NCBI GenBank assembly: GCA_029856105.1
Contig: JAHQWH010000018.1
Location: 1 to 10,112 of the forward strand
DNA from: Promethearchaeia archaeon
GTDB taxonomy: Archaea > Asgardarchaeota > Lokiarchaeia > Sigyniarchaeales > SOKP01
Direction of reading: 5' to 3'
Length of the DNA: 10,112 bases
In this document: positions 1 to 10,002 of the stretch, piece by piece
Numbering within the stretch: the first letter of the stretch is position 1
Layout: every line of letters starts with the position of its first letter
Program-made: the position numbers and the translations under genes
Notes under the pieces: model-generated
The model's input: the letters and a program-made list of their open reading frames with translations, nothing else
What the model was told of the DNA's origin: nothing
The model's database searches: none

Positions 1-503
1 CCATTATATCTTTCTCTTGTAATTGGTTCTAAAATAGGGATGAATTTTCCGTTGTTTAATAGTTCAAATATTAATTTTGTTAAAAACGCCCACGTCTTAA
101 TAGAATTACTAAAACGCTTCACACCTCGATCTTGACTGCCAATTATTTCCAATTGAAATAATAATTTTACAGTAGGAGCAATAGGCATGATTTTTCCAAT
201 GAATGACGATACTTCAAAAAATTGTGTGGAAGATTTTTTATCATTATTAGCTTTTAATGAATGTACCGGAACCGCAAAGTTGATCTTACAAGTTAATAGC
301 TTATTTGCAGGAATGGTTGGAAAACTGAGCTTAATAAGCTCAGTGAGTTCCTTTTCTGATGGTTTTGCTGGATTCCACAATAGAAAAAAACTAGAATTTC
401 TAGGAAGTTGTTTTCCTTTAGAAATTAATTCAAACCCACTTAATGGCTCATTCCAATAAGATGCTGGAATATAAATTAATTCGAGTTTATTAACAAGTTT
501 CAT
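1..503 (-). CDS. 5' part of a large gene running off the left edge; probable SNF2/SWI2-family helicase (N-terminal DUF3670-associated type region)
   Basis: Not in the ORF track. ATG at 503-501 with an in-frame TGA two codons upstream and a GGAG about 12 nt upstream. Open for 167 codons to the edge: MKLVNKLELIYIPASYWNEPLSGFEL...SNSIKTWAFLTKLIFELLNNGKFIPILEPITRERYNG. The segment SIKTWAFLTKLIFELLNNGKFIP resembles the 'SLxxW...ALxLxxRGxFLP' helix in N-termini of prokaryotic SNF2 helicases. No helicase motifs lie in the window. The CDS is secure; the product call is moderate. Confidence 0.65.
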   Translation of the reverse strand, partial: MKLVNKLELIYIPASYWNEPLSGFELISKGKQLPRNSSFFLLWNPAKPSEKELTELIKLSFPTIPANKLLTCKINFAVPVHSLKANNDKKSSTQFFEVSSFIGKIMPIAPTVKLLFQLEIIGSQDRGVKRFSNSIKTWAFLTKLIFELLNNGKFIPILEPITRERYN

Positions 504-1868: not shown

Positions 1869-2954
1869 TTATATTTTTAGAACATTTTCCTCAAACATCT
1901 TTTGATTGATTTCAACACCCAAGCCAGGTTTATCTAACGCTTTAACTTTTCCTTTTTCGCACTTTATTGGTTCTTCAAGTATTTGATACTCGTCTGGAAT
2001 AAATGGAAATTCGCACCAATCGCAACGCGAAGCCATAATAAAATGAAGATTAGCAGCCAGTATATGGCCGAAGCCGAATATATGGGGTATACAGCGCACT
2101 CCTTTTACTTCTGCCATCGCGTCAATCTTTTTCAGTTGTAAATAACCACCACTACGAGTAACGTCGGGTTGCACTATATCGTAGCTTCCCTTTGATAGAA
2201 TATCTTCAAACCTAAAAGTACCCATATCGTTTTCTCCTCCTGCTATTTCCACGGGAGATTTATTGCGTAAAATAGCGAGACCGTTCAAATTATCGGAAGG
2301 TAAAGGTTCCTCTAACCAAGCCACATTGTATTTATCGCAAATATGCGCGACTTTTAACGCATCTCTAACCGTTGTATATCCCGAGTTCACATCCACCATA
2401 ATATCTATATCAGGAAAAGCGTCCCTAACTTCCTTTATGATAGCTTCATCGCTTTTTAAACTCTTTCCAATTCGCAACTTTACAGCCTTGAAGCCGTTTA
2501 AATCAATAGCGGATTGAACAGCTCCAACAGCAGCTTTGGGTTTGTAAGCCCGCGGCATAGACGCATACGCTCTTACTTCTCTTTTCATCCCTCCCAACAA
2601 TCTATATATTGGTTGCTTCGTTGCTTTTCCAATAATGTCCCATAACGCTACTTGGATCGCGCTAGTTGCTTGAGGTATGCCAAACATTATTCGATTGCTC
2701 GAATGATATATTGTATTGTAAATTTCCTCAGTCATAAACGGATCTTTTTTTATTAACAATCGCTTAAGTGCCTCATCGATAAATTGTTTATGAGCTATAT
2801 TGCTTAAATTCCAGTGAGATAAGGCCCAACCGTCTATATCTTCGTCTGTTTTAACGTTAATATATAATCCGGTGGCTTTTATTGCGGGCATTGAACCAAT
2901 TTTTAATTTAAAATCTAATTGTAAAACATGTGTTTTAACATCTGTAATTTGCAT
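1869..2954 (-). CDS. Enolase-superfamily enzyme, mandelate racemase subgroup (probable acid-sugar/hydroxy-acid dehydratase or isomerase)
   Basis: ALWDIIGK...PIYRLLGG capping-domain motif. Mg ligands D188 (MVDVN), E215 (WLEEP), E241 (GGEN). His-Asp dyad D264 (QPD)/H291 (IPH). E315. K159-x-R161 at strand 2. GTGAG RBS at 2964-2960. Confidence 0.92.
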   Translation of the reverse strand: MQITDVKTHVLQLDFKLKIGSMPAIKATGLYINVKTDEDIDGWALSHWNLSNIAHKQFIDEALKRLLIKKDPFMTEEIYNTIYHSSNRIMFGIPQATSAIQVALWDIIGKATKQPIYRLLGGMKREVRAYASMPRAYKPKAAVGAVQSAIDLNGFKAVKLRIGKSLKSDEAIIKEVRDAFPDIDIMVDVNSGYTTVRDALKVAHICDKYNVAWLEEPLPSDNLNGLAILRNKSPVEIAGGENDMGTFRFEDILSKGSYDIVQPDVTRSGGYLQLKKIDAMAEVKGVRCIPHIFGFGHILAANLHFIMASRCDWCEFPFIPDEYQILEEPIKCEKGKVKALDKPGLGVEINQKMFEENVLKI

Positions 2955-3082
2955 AAGAACTCACATCAAAAATGTTATTATAAATATTATTATAAATAAT
3001 ATATATATTTTAATTAAACTTTTAGACAAAGTATTATTTAATTCTATTGTATTACAAATTAATTGCTTAAACGGGTTCACTC
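2955..3082. promoter_or_regulatory. Divergent promoter region between the enolase gene and the uDENN-like gene
   Basis: 128-bp extremely AT-rich gap between head-to-head genes, with several TATA-like words (TTATAAATA twice, ATATATAT). Confidence 0.7.
2975..2998. repeat. Perfect 12-bp tandem duplication TTATTATAAATA x2
   Basis: 2975-2986 and 2987-2998 are identical. Confidence 0.85.
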
Positions 3083-4123
3083 GTGGCTGAATTATTTGGA
3101 TCGTCGTCATCAGAAAAAAATCCTTTCGAGGAATTAACCGTAGTCTATGTCCTATATTTTGACGAAGCTCGTGGTCATATGCCCATATTAATCTACCCGG
3201 ATGACCGATATAAAGACGACAAGACATTTATGCGCCCGATTAAGTATCACCCTATTTGGTTTTTAAGTTTAAACGAATCTGACGCTTTAGATCATATAGA
3301 CTTGGAATTTAAAAACTATACTTTTTTTGGAAAAAAATTTATTGCTCATTCTCAAAGAGAAAAAAGGAGAGCTGGCCTCACAGGAGAAACTCCTGAGAAT
3401 ATCGTGATTATAGTATCGTTACCAAACAAGATCGAACTTTTTGGAGATGATCTCATTAGACATTTAACTCAAGATATAAAAGAAAACTTTGAAAACAAAA
3501 TCTTTGAAATTATTGAATCTGAGATATTGAAAGATGATGTAATTAAAACTCCTAAAACTAAGAAGATTATTGAAGTGGGTGATAAAATTAAGAATCAATT
3601 AAGAGAATTGATTGATAACACGACGGATAACTTTTTTTCTACTGTAATTAAACAAGCTGACGCTAGTTCAATAAGAATGCAAAAAGCGATTGCTTACTTG
3701 GCGTTTAAAGGGATAGATATATCGAATATACATAGCGAAGATTACAAAGGTTCTTTCTCGAGTATTCAATTATTTGACCCTAACAAAAAAGGAGAATTAA
3801 ATTTTATTGACAAGAATCCCTTTATATTACATAAAATTAATATCGTGGAAGATAGCCAAGAATTAGAGATATTAGTCCAAAATAATTCTCTTAATGAAAT
3901 GAAAGGGTTAATTGTAAAAATTACTCATCTGAAAGAATATTTCGAAAAAGAAATTATGATTGAATTGATTGATTCTTGGTACGCTGAAGAGGAATTAGTA
4001 TTTATTTCGCCCATTATTCCCCACATTGACGAATACATCTTCTTTATTATAGATGAAGTAAGTAATGATAAGTTATTATCAAAAAGAATCGATCTAAATC
4101 TTATAAAAAAACAAAATAATTAA
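3083..4123 (+). CDS. Hypothetical protein: putative uDENN/longin-like N-terminal domain, helical linker, C-terminal Ig-like beta-sandwich
   Basis: 346-aa ORF with a GTG start. VVYVLYFDEARGHMPILIYP fits the hhhhFDxxxGxxhxhxYP first hairpin of uDENN/longin domains. FFGKKF...KRRAG...ENIVIIVSLP fits the later hairpin. The C-terminal ~95 aa show seven alternating-hydrophobic strands. No signal peptide or TM helix. The CDS is secure; the domain calls are inferred. Confidence 0.65.
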   Translation: MAELFGSSSSEKNPFEELTVVYVLYFDEARGHMPILIYPDDRYKDDKTFMRPIKYHPIWFLSLNESDALDHIDLEFKNYTFFGKKFIAHSQREKRRAGLTGETPENIVIIVSLPNKIELFGDDLIRHLTQDIKENFENKIFEIIESEILKDDVIKTPKTKKIIEVGDKIKNQLRELIDNTTDNFFSTVIKQADASSIRMQKAIAYLAFKGIDISNIHSEDYKGSFSSIQLFDPNKKGELNFIDKNPFILHKINIVEDSQELEILVQNNSLNEMKGLIVKITHLKEYFEKEIMIELIDSWYAEEELVFISPIIPHIDEYIFFIIDEVSNDKLLSKRIDLNLIKKQNN

Positions 4124-4141
4124 TAAAATGGTGTTAAAAAT

Positions 4142-4621
4142 ATGGCTGACGAATTAATTGATAAAGAAGAAATAATAATCAGAAATTATCGAACATCTGA
4201 TTATAAAGCAACTTTAGAAATTTTAAGAGAGCTCCAAGACCAATTTAACATTGGATTAGACGAAGCAAAATGGAGAGAAACTTCTGGATTAAGACAATTT
4301 AAACCCAATTTGAAACGTATAACCTTGATTGCTGAATTAAAATCTACTGGACAAGTTGTTTCAATGGGAATGTTAGAAGCAGTAAAAAACAACCTAGGAC
4401 AGTACCTTGGCTATCTTAATTCGTGGGCTACCAAGAAAGAATTTATCGGAAGAGGAGTAGGTAAAATCTTAGCGGATAAAGCTATACAAATCTTAAAATC
4501 TTGGGGTTGTGAAGCCGTGAGAATTAATATGGCATATAAAGGCGTAAAAAGATTAATAGACATCTTTGGAAAAGTAGGTTTCGAGCCTATAATTGTCGTC
4601 CTTGAGAAAAAATTTGAGTAA
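4142..4621 (+). CDS. GNAT-family N-acetyltransferase
   Basis: IIIRNYRTSDY start, acetyl-CoA-binding motif A (KEFIGRGVGKIL), LKSWGCEAVRI and the C-terminal KVGF. GGTG RBS at 4130-4133. 18 bp after the previous stop. Confidence 0.9.
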   Translation: MADELIDKEEIIIRNYRTSDYKATLEILRELQDQFNIGLDEAKWRETSGLRQFKPNLKRITLIAELKSTGQVVSMGMLEAVKNNLGQYLGYLNSWATKKEFIGRGVGKILADKAIQILKSWGCEAVRINMAYKGVKRLIDIFGKVGFEPIIVVLEKKFE

Positions 4622-4824: not shown

Positions 4825-6261
4825 ATGCCAATTGGTATTAAAAGTTATGGCGCGTATTTACCGCGCTGGTTGCTTCCTCGCGATCTTATTGCTAAAGCAT
4901 GGGATTTTCCTTCTATTCCCGGCTCAAAAGCAGTTGCTAGTGCGGACGAAGATAGTATTACCATGTCGGTTGAAGCAGGGTTAGATTGCTTAGCAGGTAT
5001 CGACCTAAATAGCGTTGATGGACTTTTTTTCGCGTCAACTACTCAAGTCTATACGGAAAAAGATTCAGCTTCTTTAATTGCTACGGTATTGGATTTAAGG
5101 GAAGGTATAATAACAGCAGATTTTACGGATTCATTAAAGTCTGGAACTACTGCCCTAGCTAGAGCTATTGATACAATCAAAGCGAATGATGATATAAAAA
5201 GCATTCTTGTTGTCGCTGCTGATACTCGAGAGCCTGAACCTTCCACCATGTGGGAATACGGTTATGCTGATGGCGCAGCGGCTTTATTAGTAGCAGAAGG
5301 GGACGATTTGCCGCTTGTTATTGACGATTATTATTCGATTTCGGCAAATGTAACAGGACCTTGGAAGCGAACACACGAAGATAAATTTATAAGAACTTTC
5401 GAAGTCAAAATGGACGCTCAATTCTACGTAAAAAGTATTACGAAAGTAATGTCTGAAATTATGAAAAGGAACAATCTAAAACCAGAAGAAGTCGATGTTG
5501 CCGCTTATTATTACAACAACCCTAGAGTTCACGGGAGAATTTCAAAAATGATGAAGTTTCCACAAGGAGCTGCTCAAAACGGTCTATTTTTCCAGTTAGG
5601 CGATTTTGGAACCCCGATGGCATTCATGTTGCTAATGGCTGCTTTAAAACGACCTAAGGAAGATGGAAAAGTAATTTTGGCGGGATATGGAGATGGGGCA
5701 GATGCTATTTTAATGCACATCAAAGACAGAAAAGCCGTAAGAGAACTTTCAAAGAAGCACTTGGGCGTAGCAGGACATCAAAAATCGATGATATCTTTGA
5801 AGAATTACAACGTATTTATTGAAAATAAAGAATTACTTGAAAAAGACCGTTACGTCCGAAAAAGCTCTGCTGTAACCATGTGGCGAGATTCACCCGCTAT
5901 TTATAAATGGTATGGTCTCAAATGTACTAGCTGTGGAACCGTTCAATATCCTACAACAGCGCGTTCATGCGCTACATGTAGAGCAGACGACCAACTTGAA
6001 CTAATTAAACTTGCGCACAAAGGAACCATTTTTACGTATACTTTAGATCATCTAGTTGGAGGGGCTTACTTAGCTACACCCGTCCCTCGATGTGTAGTTG
6101 ATTTAGAGGGTGGAGGACGCGTGTTATTAAACATGACGGAAATCCAAAAACCCGAAGAAAACGTAAAAATTGGTATGGAAGTTGAACTTACTTTTAGAAA
6201 AGAACACGAAGGAGCAGATTTCCATAACTATTATTGGAAATGTCGGCCCTTAAGACATTAG
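4825..6261 (+). CDS. Fusion of an HMG-CoA-synthase-like (thiolase-fold, apparently inactive) domain and a DUF35 Zn-ribbon/OB-fold domain; thiolase partner subunit
   Basis: Archaeal HMGS-type motifs GIKSYGAYLPR, DEDSITMSVEA, ADGAAALL and GYGDGADA. C-terminal CTSC-x11-CATC zinc ribbon (from C367), then the OB-fold GTIFTYT...VVDLEGGGR...VKIGMEVELTFRK...YYWK. Catalytic Glu/Cys/His positions appear replaced. Confidence 0.9.
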   Translation: MPIGIKSYGAYLPRWLLPRDLIAKAWDFPSIPGSKAVASADEDSITMSVEAGLDCLAGIDLNSVDGLFFASTTQVYTEKDSASLIATVLDLREGIITADFTDSLKSGTTALARAIDTIKANDDIKSILVVAADTREPEPSTMWEYGYADGAAALLVAEGDDLPLVIDDYYSISANVTGPWKRTHEDKFIRTFEVKMDAQFYVKSITKVMSEIMKRNNLKPEEVDVAAYYYNNPRVHGRISKMMKFPQGAAQNGLFFQLGDFGTPMAFMLLMAALKRPKEDGKVILAGYGDGADAILMHIKDRKAVRELSKKHLGVAGHQKSMISLKNYNVFIENKELLEKDRYVRKSSAVTMWRDSPAIYKWYGLKCTSCGTVQYPTTARSCATCRADDQLELIKLAHKGTIFTYTLDHLVGGAYLATPVPRCVVDLEGGGRVLLNMTEIQKPEENVKIGMEVELTFRKEHEGADFHNYYWKCRPLRH

Positions 6262-6267
6262 AGGTGA
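6261..6267 (+). promoter_or_regulatory. Shine-Dalgarno (GAGGTGA) for the thiolase, overlapping the upstream stop codon
   Basis: TAGAGGTGAAAAAAAATG: near-perfect archaeal SD sharing the G of the TAG stop, consistent with translational coupling. Confidence 0.85.
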
Positions 6268-6273
6268 AAAAAA

Positions 6274-7464
6274 ATGAGTAAAATAAAAGGAATTAGGGAT
6301 AAAGTAGCCATTATTGGCTGTGACGCTACAAAATATGGCGAACGATGGGATAAAAACCAATACGATTTGCTCTTTGAAGCCTCACGAGATGCGTTTAAAG
6401 ATGCGGGAATTAAAAAGGACGAGGTTGAAGCAGCTTGGGTCGGTATCTACTACTACTTCACCGGGATGTCCGGTGCGACAGTGGAGGATATTCTTCGATT
6501 GGATGGGATTCCAATCACGCGTACAGAGAATTATTGTGCTTCGGGAATGGACGCTTTTAGGAATGCTTGTTTTGGCGTAGCGAGTGGAGCTTACGATGTT
6601 GTTCTTGCTTGTGGTGTGGAAAAATTAATGGACGAAGGCGGAAGCGGTTTACCCGGCTTTAAAATATTTGGACACCCCGTTTTACCGTTACCTTCAGCTC
6701 CTGCTATGTTTTCGATGGCAGCAACTAGATGTTTTCACGAATTTGGCTGGACAAAAGAGGATTTAGCGCGCGTGGCGGTTAAAAACCACGATAACGGGTT
6801 TTACCATCCAAAAGCGCATTTTCGAAGTAAGATCACGATTGATCAAGTAATGAAGGCACCTATGATCGCTGATCCTCTCGGTCGCTTTGACTGTTGCGCC
6901 ATGTCGGACGGAGCTGCCGCGTTAATATTGACTACACCAGAGCTTGCGGAAAGTTATGCTCACGCGGACGATTACATTGTGGTAAAAGCAAACGCTATAT
7001 CGTGTAGAACTAATTTTCCATGGTACATTCCTTCAAATGGCCCTGGAGCGGACTTTACAGCTTTTCCTGCGACCGTTAAAGCAGCCGAATATGCATATAA
7101 AGAAGCGGGTATTACAGATCCAAGAAAGGAAATCGATGCCGCAGAAGTCCACGATTGTTTCACTATAACTGAGTTAATAAATACACAAGACTTGCAATTC
7201 TGCGATCGTGGCATGGCTGCTGAGGAACTAAAAAATGGAACTTTTAATTGGGATGGGGAGACTGCCGTTAATCCTTCTGGTGGACTGAAATCTTTTGGTC
7301 ATCCAATTGGATCAACTGGTTGTAGAATGCTTCAAGAGATTACCAAACAACTTCAAGGACGCGCGGAAGGGAGACAGGTTCCTGACGCTAAGGTAGGCTT
7401 ATGTCATAATCTTGGCGGTGCGTTTAGCGTAGCTTCAGTTACAGTTTTAGGACAAAGAGATTAA
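6274..7464 (+). CDS. Thiolase (acetyl-CoA C-acyltransferase), SCP2/SCP-x type
   Basis: ENYCASG (nucleophile C88), GVEKL, VAVKNHDN, SDGAAAL, EVHDCFT (H293/C295), NPSGGLKSFGHPIGSTG (H343), and HNLGG (H378) in place of CxGGG. Confidence 0.96.
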   Translation: MSKIKGIRDKVAIIGCDATKYGERWDKNQYDLLFEASRDAFKDAGIKKDEVEAAWVGIYYYFTGMSGATVEDILRLDGIPITRTENYCASGMDAFRNACFGVASGAYDVVLACGVEKLMDEGGSGLPGFKIFGHPVLPLPSAPAMFSMAATRCFHEFGWTKEDLARVAVKNHDNGFYHPKAHFRSKITIDQVMKAPMIADPLGRFDCCAMSDGAAALILTTPELAESYAHADDYIVVKANAISCRTNFPWYIPSNGPGADFTAFPATVKAAEYAYKEAGITDPRKEIDAAEVHDCFTITELINTQDLQFCDRGMAAEELKNGTFNWDGETAVNPSGGLKSFGHPIGSTGCRMLQEITKQLQGRAEGRQVPDAKVGLCHNLGGAFSVASVTVLGQRD

Positions 7465-8133: not shown

Positions 8134-9156
8134 ATGAGCGAAACCGTTATAAAATTAGAAAATTTAAGCAAGAAGTATGGTAATTTTATGGCCCTAGATA
8201 CTGTAAGCTTTTCAGTTCGAAAAGGTGAGATTATCGGATTAGTGGGGCCAAATGGTGCAGGAAAGACTACATTGCTTAAACTAATAGCTCGCTTGATTAG
8301 ACCAAATTCCGGAAGCGTTTTTATTAAAAATAATGATTGTAAATTACAGAATATTCAAAAAAATTCAAAAAATTTAATCGAAATGGGCTTTTTAATCGAT
8401 ATTCCTCACTTTTATAACACAACCCCATATTGTTTATTAAGACATATTGCGAACATTAGGAATTATCCAAGGAACAAAATAAAACTTAGAATTGATCATC
8501 TTTTAAAAACCTTCGATTTATATGAATGGAAATATAAGAAGTTAAAAACCTTTTCAAAAGGAATGATACAGAAATTAGGTTTTATGGTTGCGATAATTCA
8601 CGACCCAGAGCTTTTTATTCTTGATGAGCCTCAAACGGGCTTAGATACAAATGCTCGTATAAAAATACGAGAATATCTTAAATCGCTTCAAAATGAGGGG
8701 AAAACCATTCTTTTATCGTCTCATTTATTAACTGAGCTAAGAGAAGTATGTGATAAGATTGCTCTAATAAATCAAGGTGTGTTGATTGGATTTGATACAA
8801 TTGATAATTTGGAGAGAGATTTCAAAACCAAGGAATTAATTTGTGAAATTGGTAATCCAATTCCTATAGAAAGAGTAAATGATTTAATTATTAAACTGAA
8901 TCGCCAATTAGAGCCATTTTTGGAAGCAAAAGTGGATCACTCAAATTTTGAAGGTTTGATCACTTATAATCGCCAGAAAAATTTCTTTACAATTTGCTAT
9001 GATGGTAAACAAACTTCAAGAAGTGAAATTTTAAACATTTTGTCTACAGAATTCGTATCCGATCTTACAATAAGTTCTTTTTACGAACCAAAGATTTCTC
9101 AGTTAGAAAGTCTATATAATCAGATGATAAAAGAAAATAACAAAAAACTAAAATGA
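8134..9156 (+). CDS. ABC-2 type exporter ATP-binding subunit with C-terminal extension
   Basis: Walker A GPNGAGKT, signature variant FSKGM, Walker B/D-loop FILDEPQTGLD, H-loop LSSH. About 100-aa C-terminal domain ending in an LESLY motif. Confidence 0.96.
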   Translation: MSETVIKLENLSKKYGNFMALDTVSFSVRKGEIIGLVGPNGAGKTTLLKLIARLIRPNSGSVFIKNNDCKLQNIQKNSKNLIEMGFLIDIPHFYNTTPYCLLRHIANIRNYPRNKIKLRIDHLLKTFDLYEWKYKKLKTFSKGMIQKLGFMVAIIHDPELFILDEPQTGLDTNARIKIREYLKSLQNEGKTILLSSHLLTELREVCDKIALINQGVLIGFDTIDNLERDFKTKELICEIGNPIPIERVNDLIIKLNRQLEPFLEAKVDHSNFEGLITYNRQKNFFTICYDGKQTSRSEILNILSTEFVSDLTISSFYEPKISQLESLYNQMIKENNKKLK

Positions 9157-9177
9157 GATTAAGTGAGGTTATAATAA

Positions 9178-10002
9178 GTGGAAAAATTAGCTAATATTTG
9201 CGTAAATCTTAAACAAGTTTCACACTCGATATTATTTGAAGTAAAGCTCCAAAAGAAGAAATTTATTATATTTTCAATTATAACGATTATTTTATTCTTT
9301 TTAAATAGTATTGTTTCTTATGTTATTTTTTCATTTATGACCTTACCTTATTCTCAAATTGATTTATATCAAAGTTTAATCTTATCTTTTATGACGATTT
9401 TATTCTTAACTACGGGGTTCTTTTTTTCAGGTATTATTTGTACTGAATATAAAAAGAAAACAGGTTTAACATTGCTTCCTTTAATTGAGAAGCATAATTT
9501 AATTATAGGGAAATATATTGCAAATTACATATTAGTTATAGGAATTACGGCTATTCAATATTTCCTAATAGCGCTTTTAACTTTTTATTTTTATGCTGAG
9601 CCCATACCTCCTTCATTATTTCTTAGTTTTGGATATCTTGCACTATATATCCTAGCTTTAGCTAGCGTTACAACATTTCTAAGCTCTTTTATGCCTTCAG
9701 CAAGTTCAGTGCTTATCATTATTATTGCACTCATTTTATTTGGTTTTTCAATAATCGATGTATTTGTTAAGCCTACTCGTATTGAGCCACTTTACTCGTT
9801 ACCTTACCTTTATAATATTATTAGTAAAATAATTTATCCTGAGTTCTCCACTATGGAAAGATATTATGAATATACACAAGATAATATTACTCATCGAATT
9901 TGGTCATTTCCGTCTGCGGAAGGAGCATTAATAGTTTTAACGTTATATGCGATTGTTTTTTTCCTGTTAGGATATTTATTGTTTAAAAGAAGACAATTAT
10001 AA
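9178..10002 (+). CDS. ABC-2 type exporter permease
   Basis: GTG start with a GAGGT RBS at 9165-9169. About six hydrophobic segments. Cytoplasmic motif GIICTEYKKKTGLTLLPLIEKHNLIIGKY and a C-terminal FKRRQL are typical of ABC-2 permeases. Confidence 0.92.
   Translation: MEKLANICVNLKQVSHSILFEVKLQKKKFIIFSIITIILFFLNSIVSYVIFSFMTLPYSQIDLYQSLILSFMTILFLTTGFFFSGIICTEYKKKTGLTLLPLIEKHNLIIGKYIANYILVIGITAIQYFLIALLTFYFYAEPIPPSLFLSFGYLALYILALASVTTFLSSFMPSASSVLIIIIALILFGFSIIDVFVKPTRIEPLYSLPYLYNIISKIIYPEFSTMERYYEYTQDNITHRIWSFPSAEGALIVLTLYAIVFFLLGYLLFKRRQL

Follow-up and report, generated by a model that had tools for sequence, protein, structure and literature searches.

The window analysed here is a stretch of 10,112 nucleotides from a Lokiarchaeial genome (contig JAHQWH010000018.1), AT-rich, with 27–43% GC. 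Its main point of interest is a gene for a three-part protein, composed of an N-terminal longin domain, a helical stalk and a C-terminal immunoglobulin-like (Ig-like) tail, whose relatives in other Asgard archaea are encoded close to a Rag-type GTPase (Table 1). We call this product the longin-tail protein. The open reading frame (ORF) represents a real gene rather than a chance ORF because it has 372 homologues at E ≤ 0.01, because nearly all of the 91 representatives at 50% identity share an architecture of ~340 residues, and because matches to the family occur in 184 of 400 genomes of the phylum. The GTG start codon is considered correct since the homologues begin at the equivalent position with M-A-E-L-F. 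All of the motifs quoted in a first-pass annotation, which had been made from the sequence alone, are present in the 346-residue translation.

Scans of the longin-tail protein and 34 relatives against Pfam and NCBIfam assigned no family, and searches of PDB sequences with the protein and with the family profile gave no match at E ≤ 10. One relative carries the source label 'nitrogen regulatory protein PII-like', which we set aside, as it fits neither the fold described below nor any of the scans.

Table 1. Features of the longin-tail gene and its immediate surroundings, in window coordinates (aa, residues of the protein; pLDDT, predicted local distance difference test).
Feature	Position	Strand	Detail and basis
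Longin-tail protein gene	3083..4123	+	GTG start, 346 aa; ORF list and translation
Longin domain, β-β-α-β-β-β-α	3134..3490 (aa 18-136)	+	AlphaFold2, pLDDT about 90; structural matches
β1–β2 hairpin motif F26-D-E-x-x-G31-H32-x-P34 ... P39	3158..3199	+	Conservation in 57 members
Basic β4–β5 loop S90-x-R92-x-K94-R95-R96-x-G98, candidate arginine finger	3350..3376	+	Between strands 79-88 and 105-114
Helical stalk	3500..3706 (aa 140-208)	+	AlphaFold2 helices 140-150, 157-191, 197-208; without Pfam family
Flexible linker	3731..3811 (aa 217-243)	+	pLDDT <50; length and sequence vary across the family
Ig-like tail domain, seven strands	3821..4093 (aa 247-337)	+	AlphaFold2
AT-rich divergent intergenic region	2955..3082	.	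Shared with enolase-superfamily gene 1869-2954 (-); sequence
Shine-Dalgarno-like GGTG	4130..4133	+	8 nt before the GNAT start; read from sequence
GNAT acetyltransferase gene	4142..4621	+	Pfam Acetyltransf_1, E 6e-9; co-oriented with the longin-tail gene

Fold and conserved features of the longin-tail protein

An AlphaFold2 model of the 346-residue protein, built from a 34-sequence alignment, has a mean pLDDT of 83.6. Its N-terminal domain runs through strands 20–27 and 31–38, helices at 41–68, strands 72–76, 79–88 and 105–114, and a helix at 115–136, and thus has the five-stranded topology by which the longin superfamily is defined. We compared residues 17–189 with 48,161 PDB representatives in a structural search that does not rely on Foldseek, and in a second search the 1000 best chains from Foldseek were re-examined. 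The top match is a chain of the GATOR1 complex (8fw5_B, Z 10.4). GATOR1 chains in five entries, four of them added by the Foldseek re-examination (Z 9.9–10.2), have residues 6–144 matched at Z 9.9–10.4, with a root-mean-square deviation (rmsd) of 3.1–3.2 over 135–136 aligned residues. These chains are 362–370 residues long, and from this length we take them to be NPRL2, the entry titles giving no chain identity. Chains of folliculin complexes score similarly (6nzd_H, Z 10.3; 8dhb_J, from the active FLCN complex, Z 9.9), followed by Sec22 (Z 9.7), the yeast SEA complex (Z 9.5), the Lokiarchaeal Roadblock-Longin protein 8yqg (Z 9.2–9.4), and VAMP7, AP-3 sigma, SRX, synbindin, sedlin and BLOC-3 (Z 8.3–8.9). 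Overall, about 15 longin or roadblock-type structures match residues 17–190 at Z 8–10.4.

On the basis of the model, the N-terminal domain is firmly predicted to have the longin fold, and our best guess is that it is, by fold, a longin of the type found in GTPase-activating proteins (GAPs). The fold alone does not single out this class, because other longins score within 1 Z unit. The structure prediction and search that the first-pass annotation had proposed as a check on this domain thus gave a longin topology, with longins acting on small GTPases as the best matches. The annotation's term was 'uDENN/longin', of which only the second half holds. A DENN or uDENN protein is ruled out: Pfam uDENN, DENN, dDENN, Avl9 and SPA have no match in 34 family members, and residues 140–208 form three helices, followed by the linker and a β sandwich, instead of a DENN core. 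Pfam NPR2 (PF06218) and Folliculin (PF11704) likewise match none of these 34 members at E ≤ 1. In a six-frame search of 400 Asgard genomes, NPR2 gave three sub-threshold matches, none of them in the longin-tail family, and in the window's own genome Folliculin gave sub-threshold matches elsewhere only, of a kind that control genomes give too. When language-model features are compared, the closest cluster with a name is one of Promethearchaeota (score 0.90), and 19% of its members carry Pfam NPR2; we treat this as a lead and not a test. The top row returned by Foldseek, beta-arrestin 1, has an rmsd of 28.7 over 430 columns and is not meaningful as a global match.

The N-terminus of the protein is hydrophilic, which leaves no signal peptide. 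The most hydrophobic 19-residue stretch of the chain (305–323, Kyte–Doolittle value 1.7) falls within two confidently modelled β strands and includes P, H, D and E, so that a transmembrane (TM) segment is not credible either. The absence of both had already been stated from the sequence and is borne out by the hydrophobicity profile and the model. The longin-tail protein is soluble and cytoplasmic. A SNARE is ruled out by the lack of a SNARE motif or TM segment, and a secreted Ig-domain protein by the lack of a signal peptide.

Conservation was counted in an alignment of 57 diverse members from Lokiarchaeia, Jordarchaeia and Heimdallarchaeia. In the β1–β2 hairpin of the longin domain, G31 (56/57), P39 (55/57), H32 (46/57) and P34 (40/57) are retained, and F26-D27-E28 is also strongly conserved. 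The basic β4–β5 loop keeps R92 and K94 in 50 members each, S90 and G98 in 48, and R96 in 47. Further strongly conserved positions of the domain are H56, W59 and D73-L74-E75. The strands of a longin sheet are arranged in the order 2-1-5-4-3, with the β1–β2 and β4–β5 loops side by side at one end. By this topology, R92 and R96 in the β4–β5 loop of the model are predicted to lie at the same end as the G31-H-x-P34 hairpin. NPRL2 Arg78 and FLCN Arg164 lie in the β4–β5 loop as well and are candidate equivalents of R92 or R96. In NPRL2, FLCN, SMCR8 and C9orf72, a GP motif at the end of the β1–β2 loop lies beside the arginine finger, and the pair of GP motif and arginine finger has been found in some Asgard longins as well (PMC12290439).

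Degeneration of the arginine loop is limited to divergent paralogue lineages of the family. Two loci of Hodarchaeales (Heimdallarchaeota) contain tandem pairs in which one copy has the R-x-K-x-R-x-G loop and the G-H of the hairpin and the other has lost both (L050, 9811–11906; L054, 7445–9557), and tandem pairs with one degenerate copy are also present at L041 and L042, in one genus of the window's own taxonomic family. These pairs resemble the catalytic/non-catalytic pairs NPRL2–NPRL3 and FLCN–FNIP, a likeness that is suggestive only. Both longin-tail copies in the window's own genome retain the arginine loop.

The tail consists of strands 247–255, 260–267, 273–284, 287–299, 304–310, 317–324 and 330–337, which match one for one the seven C-terminal β segments that had been read from the sequence. 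N267 is invariant (57/57), and F287, E288, W299 and E303 are conserved. Unrelated Ig-like sandwiches match the tail at Z 9–10, including GH2 glycosidase domains, PDE-delta (10.0), HAP2 domain 3, DUF3244 and the GAE domain of BBS1 (9.2). The first-pass annotation had called the domain 'appendage-like'. In the comparison with adaptin and GGA ears the sandwich is present and BBS1 GAE is among the matches, but non-ear domains score the same or higher, and the platform subdomain that alpha and beta ears have in addition does not appear in the model. The Ig-like fold is therefore upheld and the appendage specificity is not; as modelled, the tail would be a generic Ig-like sandwich, not demonstrably an adaptin ear.

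The tail is not confined to the longin-tail protein. Searched against the window's own genome, the family profile retrieves the longin-tail gene of the window and a paralogue on contig C225 that is 46% identical to it, and it also matches the C-termini of two further proteins. One is a 499-residue protein with 4Fe-4S and FrhB_FdhB domains (E 1e-11), and the other is a 406-residue arrestin-like protein (E 2e-7), whose Arrestin_C match is sub-threshold; we refer to them as the FrhB-tail and arrestin-tail proteins. When the three tail types are aligned across four lineages, they have a common signature: the second strand is followed by an Asn that never varies, and an (E/D)(F/L)FE motif and a W...E pair are also present. 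Three proteins that are otherwise unrelated thus have this private domain in common.

Linkage of the family to a Rag GTPase

In the window's own genome, a gene for a 306-residue Gtr1/RagA GTPase lies 63 bp after the FrhB-tail gene (L047, contig C132, 494–2976). The arrestin-tail gene is on another contig (L048, C218, 667–2768), where it is followed by the gene for a 290-residue protein without a Pfam family. Orthologues of the GTPase are 44–64% identical among Lokiarchaeia, Jordarchaeia and Hodarchaeales. The GTPase matches Pfam Gtr1_RagA with 86.7 bits (cut-off 22) and keeps the P-loop, DxxGQ, the Rag-type HKYD and TSIY, the last two being invariant. Its model has a G domain followed by a roadblock domain (α-β-β-α-β-β-β-α), and its best full-length Foldseek matches in the PDB are LokiRagO (8yl2), Gtr1 and RagA (E 6e-15 to 1e-12). 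Its sequence matches RagA/Gtr1 at E 1e-15 to 1e-17 but RagC/Gtr2 only at about 1e-6, which places it nearer the former. With a Gtr1_RagA G domain that contains HKxD and a C-terminal roadblock, it is a Rag/Gtr GTPase.

In other Asgard archaea, genes for these tail-bearing proteins gather around this GTPase. In a sister family of the same order (L036), the FrhB-tail, RagA-like, arrestin-tail, longin-tail, CBS and GNAT genes are contiguous on one strand. Two other Lokiarchaeial families (L035 and L038) have the order longin-tail, CBS, CBS, FrhB-tail, RagA, arrestin-tail, and at L035 (6277–8172, minus strand) a single polypeptide of 631 residues combines the longin-tail protein with four CBS domains, a fusion that supports a putative functional tie between the longin protein and a CBS sensor. 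Twelve loci of Jordarchaeia and Freyarchaeia carry CBS, longin-tail, C25 peptidase, FrhB-tail, RagA and arrestin-tail genes on one strand, except for L051, where two halves of the cluster lie 8.8 kb apart on opposite strands. In the one such locus that was scanned (L073, Freyarchaeota CP147778.1), genes for two V4R-domain proteins follow the arrestin-tail gene; at 10179–12200 and 16395–19013 this locus holds the Peptidase_C25 gene (gingipain-type), between the longin-tail and FrhB-tail genes, and the V4R pair past the arrestin-tail gene. Heimdallarchaeota bin6 has two longin-tail genes, a CBS gene and an FrhB-tail gene, with RagA convergent, and Ca. Hodarchaeum mangrovi has longin-tail and CBS genes with a convergent RagA about 7 kb downstream. 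Similar clusters are also present at L034, L037, L050, L052 and L054. Outside the window's own family, the longin-tail and Rag genes are 1.4–8.8 kb apart in all 16 genomes for which both coordinates are listed.

Two contigs have labels from outside the Asgard archaea. One, labelled 'Candidatus Deferrimicrobium sp.' (L063, DATKTP010000068.1), carries an Asgard-type copy with 75% identity to the window protein, and the other, labelled 'Thermoproteota archaeon' (L077, JAPDJY010000052.1), carries a full Jordarchaeia-type cluster. Both are probably misbinned or mislabelled and provide no evidence of transfer.

The arrangement in the window's own family differs. In over 30 loci of this family, which are all those whose sequence extends far enough downstream, a GNAT gene directly follows the longin-tail gene. 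In the window, co-transcription of the two genes is likely because the spacer is only 18 nt, because GGTG precedes the GNAT start by 8 nt, and because no terminator-like site lies within the spacer; from these features, the longin-tail gene and GNAT are probably co-transcribed. The longin-tail and Rag genes lie on the same contig, 10–64 kb apart, in about two dozen genomes of the family, with one outlier at 792 kb. Judging from gene order, the longin-tail gene in this Lokiarchaeial lineage has left the Rag cluster but keeps its presumptively co-transcribed GNAT. The paralogue on contig C225 (L040, 2299–8885) lies 59 nt after genes for an HdrA/MvhD fusion and the small and large subunits of a NiFe-hydrogenase, and its 3' end overlaps, tail to tail, a convergent second Gtr1/RagA-like gene of 301 residues.

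In a maximum-likelihood tree of 59 members, the GNAT-linked type of the window and the C225 type form one clade with a support of 100. Genes that are located in the cluster, from the sister family, Jordarchaeia, other Lokiarchaeia and Heimdallarchaeia, fall outside that clade in roughly the order of the species. This makes the window gene co-orthologous to the cluster gene and the duplication specific to the lineage.

Across the 400 genomes, a RagA orthologue (counted at E ≤ 1e-50) was found in 157, compared with the 184 that have longin-tail family matches. In family f1, the longin-tail family is present in 131 and the RagA orthologue in 113 of 134 genomes; in f16 the counts are 22 and 19 of 22. 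Both are present in all genomes of f2, f4–f7, f20 (5/5) and f21 (6/6), as well as, within f32, in G397 only. Neither is found in any of the 14 genomes of f3, a family from the order to which the window's own family belongs; these include single-contig genomes of about 4.3 and 6.0 Mb. In all other families the RagA orthologue is absent, and so is the longin-tail family, save for borderline or tail-only matches. Borderline profile matches (E about 1e-3) occur in two f13 genomes and one f14 genome. The single match in G002, of f9, is the tail of an FrhB-type protein, without a longin-tail gene, and the two remaining f9 genomes each have one weak match (E about 1e-11), probably to an FrhB tail too. 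Apart from these matches, the set of taxonomic families with the RagA orthologue is the same as that with the longin-tail family, a coherent pattern. From the sequences recovered, the longin-tail family appears to be restricted to the Asgard archaea. The taxonomic survey called for in the first-pass annotation therefore did not yield the wide bacterial distribution that would have spoken against its proposal.

Proposed role of the longin-tail protein in a Rag module

We lean towards the view that the longin-tail protein, a longin of the NPRL2/folliculin kind joined to a stalk and a private tail, represents, in this lineage, the longin subunit that belongs to a conserved Rag module, in which it would dock on the Rag-like GTPase and act as its GAP while the tail assembles partners. 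The parts of this view differ in strength. It is highly probable that the protein belongs to the Rag module, and we consider it fairly likely that the protein acts directly on the GTPase. That it is a GAP is a plausible but tentative proposal.

The putative module would comprise the FrhB-tail flavoprotein, the RagA/Gtr1-like GTPase, the arrestin-tail protein, the longin-tail protein and a CBS-pair protein, and in this taxonomic order also GNAT. The longin domain would dock on the G domain of the GTPase, probably in the form of a homodimer or of a pair with the paralogue, and supply R92 or R96 from the β4–β5 loop, beside the G31-H-x-P34 hairpin, to stimulate GTP hydrolysis. Through the tail, the three proteins that carry it may be held on a shared partner or bound to one another. 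Redox state, through FrhB, and adenylate or energy state, through CBS, could set the state of the switch, and the co-transcribed GNAT may acetylate a component of the module. In its most specific form, which we regard as doubtful though worth stating, the longin-tail protein would provide the arginine finger in a forerunner of GATOR1/folliculin in archaea, switching off the RagA-like GTPase within a tail-held complex, with the FrhB-type, CBS and arrestin-like proteins as redox, energy and cargo inputs or outputs.

Several points weigh against this interpretation. Most longin and roadblock platforms are guanine-nucleotide exchange factors (GEFs) or scaffolds. The GAP-type longins, at Z of about 10, lead Sec22 (9.7), VAMP7, AP sigma and SRX by less than 1 Z unit, and neither NPR2, folliculin nor any other longin family sequence model matches the longin-tail family, nor does any PDB sequence. 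The strict G-P dipeptide of the GAP longins (PMC12290439) is replaced by G-H-x-P at the same place, with the glycine kept. In the window's own genome, the longin-tail gene is not beside the GTPase gene but on a different contig. Related genomes are not independent samples, so their co-occurrence overstates the evidence. Finally, the β4–β5 loop is about 16 residues long with several basic residues, so that the counterpart of NPRL2 Arg78 or FLCN Arg164 in it is only a candidate.

The linkage and co-occurrence would be just as expected if the protein were a GEF, or a platform specific for one nucleotide state of the Rag-like GTPase, rather than its GAP. Most longin and roadblock dimers work in this way, as in Mon1–Ccz1, TRAPP, DENN, Ragulator and MglB-type platforms. 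Synbindin, sedlin and BLOC-3 (each Z 8.4) and SRX (8.6) score almost as well as the GAP longins, and the family lacks the strict GP dipeptide that has been proposed as a GAP signature (PMC12290439). However, the best structural scores are those of arginine-finger GAP subunits, and the loss of the loop from tandem second copies fits a catalytic/non-catalytic pair. The conserved arginine-rich loop, moreover, lies where we take the finger of NPRL2 and FLCN to sit, and we judge exchange or platform activity unlikely. Somewhat less likely again is a non-catalytic scaffold, in which the longin domain would only dimerise and the tail would join the FrhB-type enzyme and the arrestin-like protein, with the GTPase regulated otherwise. 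The Lokiarchaeal longin domain 8yqg was crystallised as a dimer, according to the title of the entry, and scores Z 9.2–9.4; the tail is the element that three otherwise unrelated proteins have in common; and in this lineage the longin-tail gene lies apart from the GTPase gene. A scaffold of this kind fits poorly with the conserved residues G31, P39, R92, K94, R96 and G98, which are gathered into a pair of loops at the same end of the sheet and not on a dimer face. Such clustering suggests an active or binding site.

The first-pass annotation had proposed a GTPase regulator joined to a platform, as a building block of vesicle coats or tethers. The linkage to a Rag-type GTPase is in keeping with the regulatory half of that proposal, but the context is a Rag switch with redox and energy sensors, not a coat or tether. 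Matches to Sec22 (Z 9.7) and AP-3 sigma (8.9) for the longin domain and to BBS1 GAE (9.2) for the tail are in keeping with a longin combined with an adaptin-ear-like platform in membrane traffic. Glycosidase Ig-like domains score as well as ear-type domains, however, and the protein has neither a SNARE motif nor a TM segment. No coat, adaptin or TRAPP genes were found in the about 60 loci examined, where the recurring neighbours of longin-tail genes are Rag GTPase, CBS, FrhB, hydrogenase/Hdr and GNAT genes, and a role in coats or tethers is very improbable. We give even less weight to the idea that the N-terminal domain is a small-molecule sensor of the GAF/PAS/profilin-like α/β class. Such folds do resemble longins, and sensor domains (CBS and V4R) abound in the neighbourhood, but Pfam GAF and PAS have no match. 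Neither structural search has a GAF or PAS structure, the alternative that the annotation had itself named, in its top 50, against about 15 longin or roadblock-type entries.

A Rag-directed longin GAP, the reading we prefer, has close parallels among known systems. NPRL2 of GATOR1 (Npr2 of yeast SEACIT), the arginine-finger GAP subunit for RagA/Gtr1, has the same longin fold and the top structural scores. In both NPRL2 and the longin-tail protein, a Gly-containing β1–β2 hairpin ends in a conserved Pro and an arginine loop lies between β4 and β5, and the GTPase to which the longin-tail family is linked is closer to RagA/Gtr1 than to RagC/Gtr2. The two differ in that there is no detectable sequence homology, the hairpin is G-H-x-P rather than G-P, the arginine loop of the longin-tail protein is longer, and a stalk and an Ig-like tail stand where NPRL2 has C-terminal domains of its own. 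GATOR1 as a complex differs further, as no equivalents of DEPDC5 or NPRL3 were identified for the longin-tail system. Folliculin (FLCN–FNIP2), a longin-DENN GAP for RagC/D, also matches in the longin fold (Z 9.9–10.3; 6nzd_H, 8dhb_J), and the R-x-G of the β4–β5 loop resembles the A-R-G around FLCN Arg164. Unlike folliculin, the longin-tail protein has no DENN domain and no Pfam Folliculin match above the cut-off, and its linked GTPase is RagA-like, not RagC-like. The Lokiarchaeal Roadblock-Longin protein (8yqg) is likewise an Asgard longin, with 141–145 residues aligned, including part of the helical extension, but its roadblock domain is N-terminal to the longin, it has no tail, and there is no sequence match with the longin-tail protein.

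Asgard longins of the NPRL2-like and Folliculin/SMCR8 types have been published as classes (Liu et al., bioRxiv 10.1101/2020.10.19.343400; PMC12290439), including a longin with an NPRL2 C-domain, longin-DENN proteins, fusions to two-component domains and a LAMTOR1-Rab-DENN operon, and Asgard Rag GTPases have also been published (PMC10933270; PDB 8yl2, 8zla). The published Asgard GAP-type longins resemble the longin-tail protein in being Asgard-restricted, in the hairpin motif, in a conserved arginine, and in their tie to prokaryote-type sensor domains. The texts of the papers that were searched make no mention of the longin-stalk-tail architecture, of a tail common to FrhB-type and arrestin-like proteins, or of linkage to Rag, CBS and GNAT genes. 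The earlier impression that the domain combination had not been described thus holds for the architecture and its linkage, but not for NPRL2-like Asgard longins in general, which were already known. What is new here is the longin-stalk-tail architecture, the common tail and the linkage to a Rag cluster. To these the window adds a detached longin-GNAT form that is co-orthologous to the cluster gene, a paralogue flanked by a hydrogenase operon and by a further Rag-like GTPase gene, the presence or absence of the arginine loop among paralogues, and co-distribution at the level of families.

Asgard genomes encode dozens of small GTPases and more than 100 longin or roadblock proteins. In the cultured Lokiarchaeon MK-D1, small GTPase genes are generally not in operons with longin genes (PMC10933270). 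The longin-tail family is an exception to this pattern in that it pairs one highly conserved RagA-like GTPase with one NPRL2/folliculin-like longin, and the common tail domain names further candidate partners of the Rag switch. Two questions become testable with this system, namely whether longin-based GAP activity is older than eukaryotes and what the ancestral Rag switch sensed. If the longin-tail protein were indeed part of a forerunner of GATOR1/folliculin, the eukaryotic Rag nutrient switch would descend from a redox- and energy-sensing module of the Asgard archaea, represented in Hodarchaeales, Jordarchaeia and Lokiarchaeia.

Neighbouring genes in the window

Within the window's own family, a divergent enolase-superfamily gene lies upstream of the longin-tail gene in most loci, and a gene for an HMG-CoA synthase-DUF35 protein lies downstream in many. 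The GNAT protein has no PDB relative at E ≤ 0.01. At the left edge of the window, a truncated ORF (3–503, minus strand) has a weak match to a sll1366-type helicase model only.

Downstream of the GNAT gene, the region 4825–7464 (plus strand) encodes an HMG-CoA synthase fused to a DUF35-type zinc-ribbon/OB module (zf-ChsH2 and OB_ChsH2_C), with an acetyl-CoA acetyltransferase gene 12 nt later. The archaeal mevalonate-entry complex has three components, all of them encoded in this region and two of them fused, and the fractional GC content of the region is 0.40–0.43, compared with 0.27–0.30 nearby. It is followed at 8134–10002 (plus strand) by an ABC-2 type transporter pair, consisting of an ATPase of 340 residues and a permease of 274 residues.

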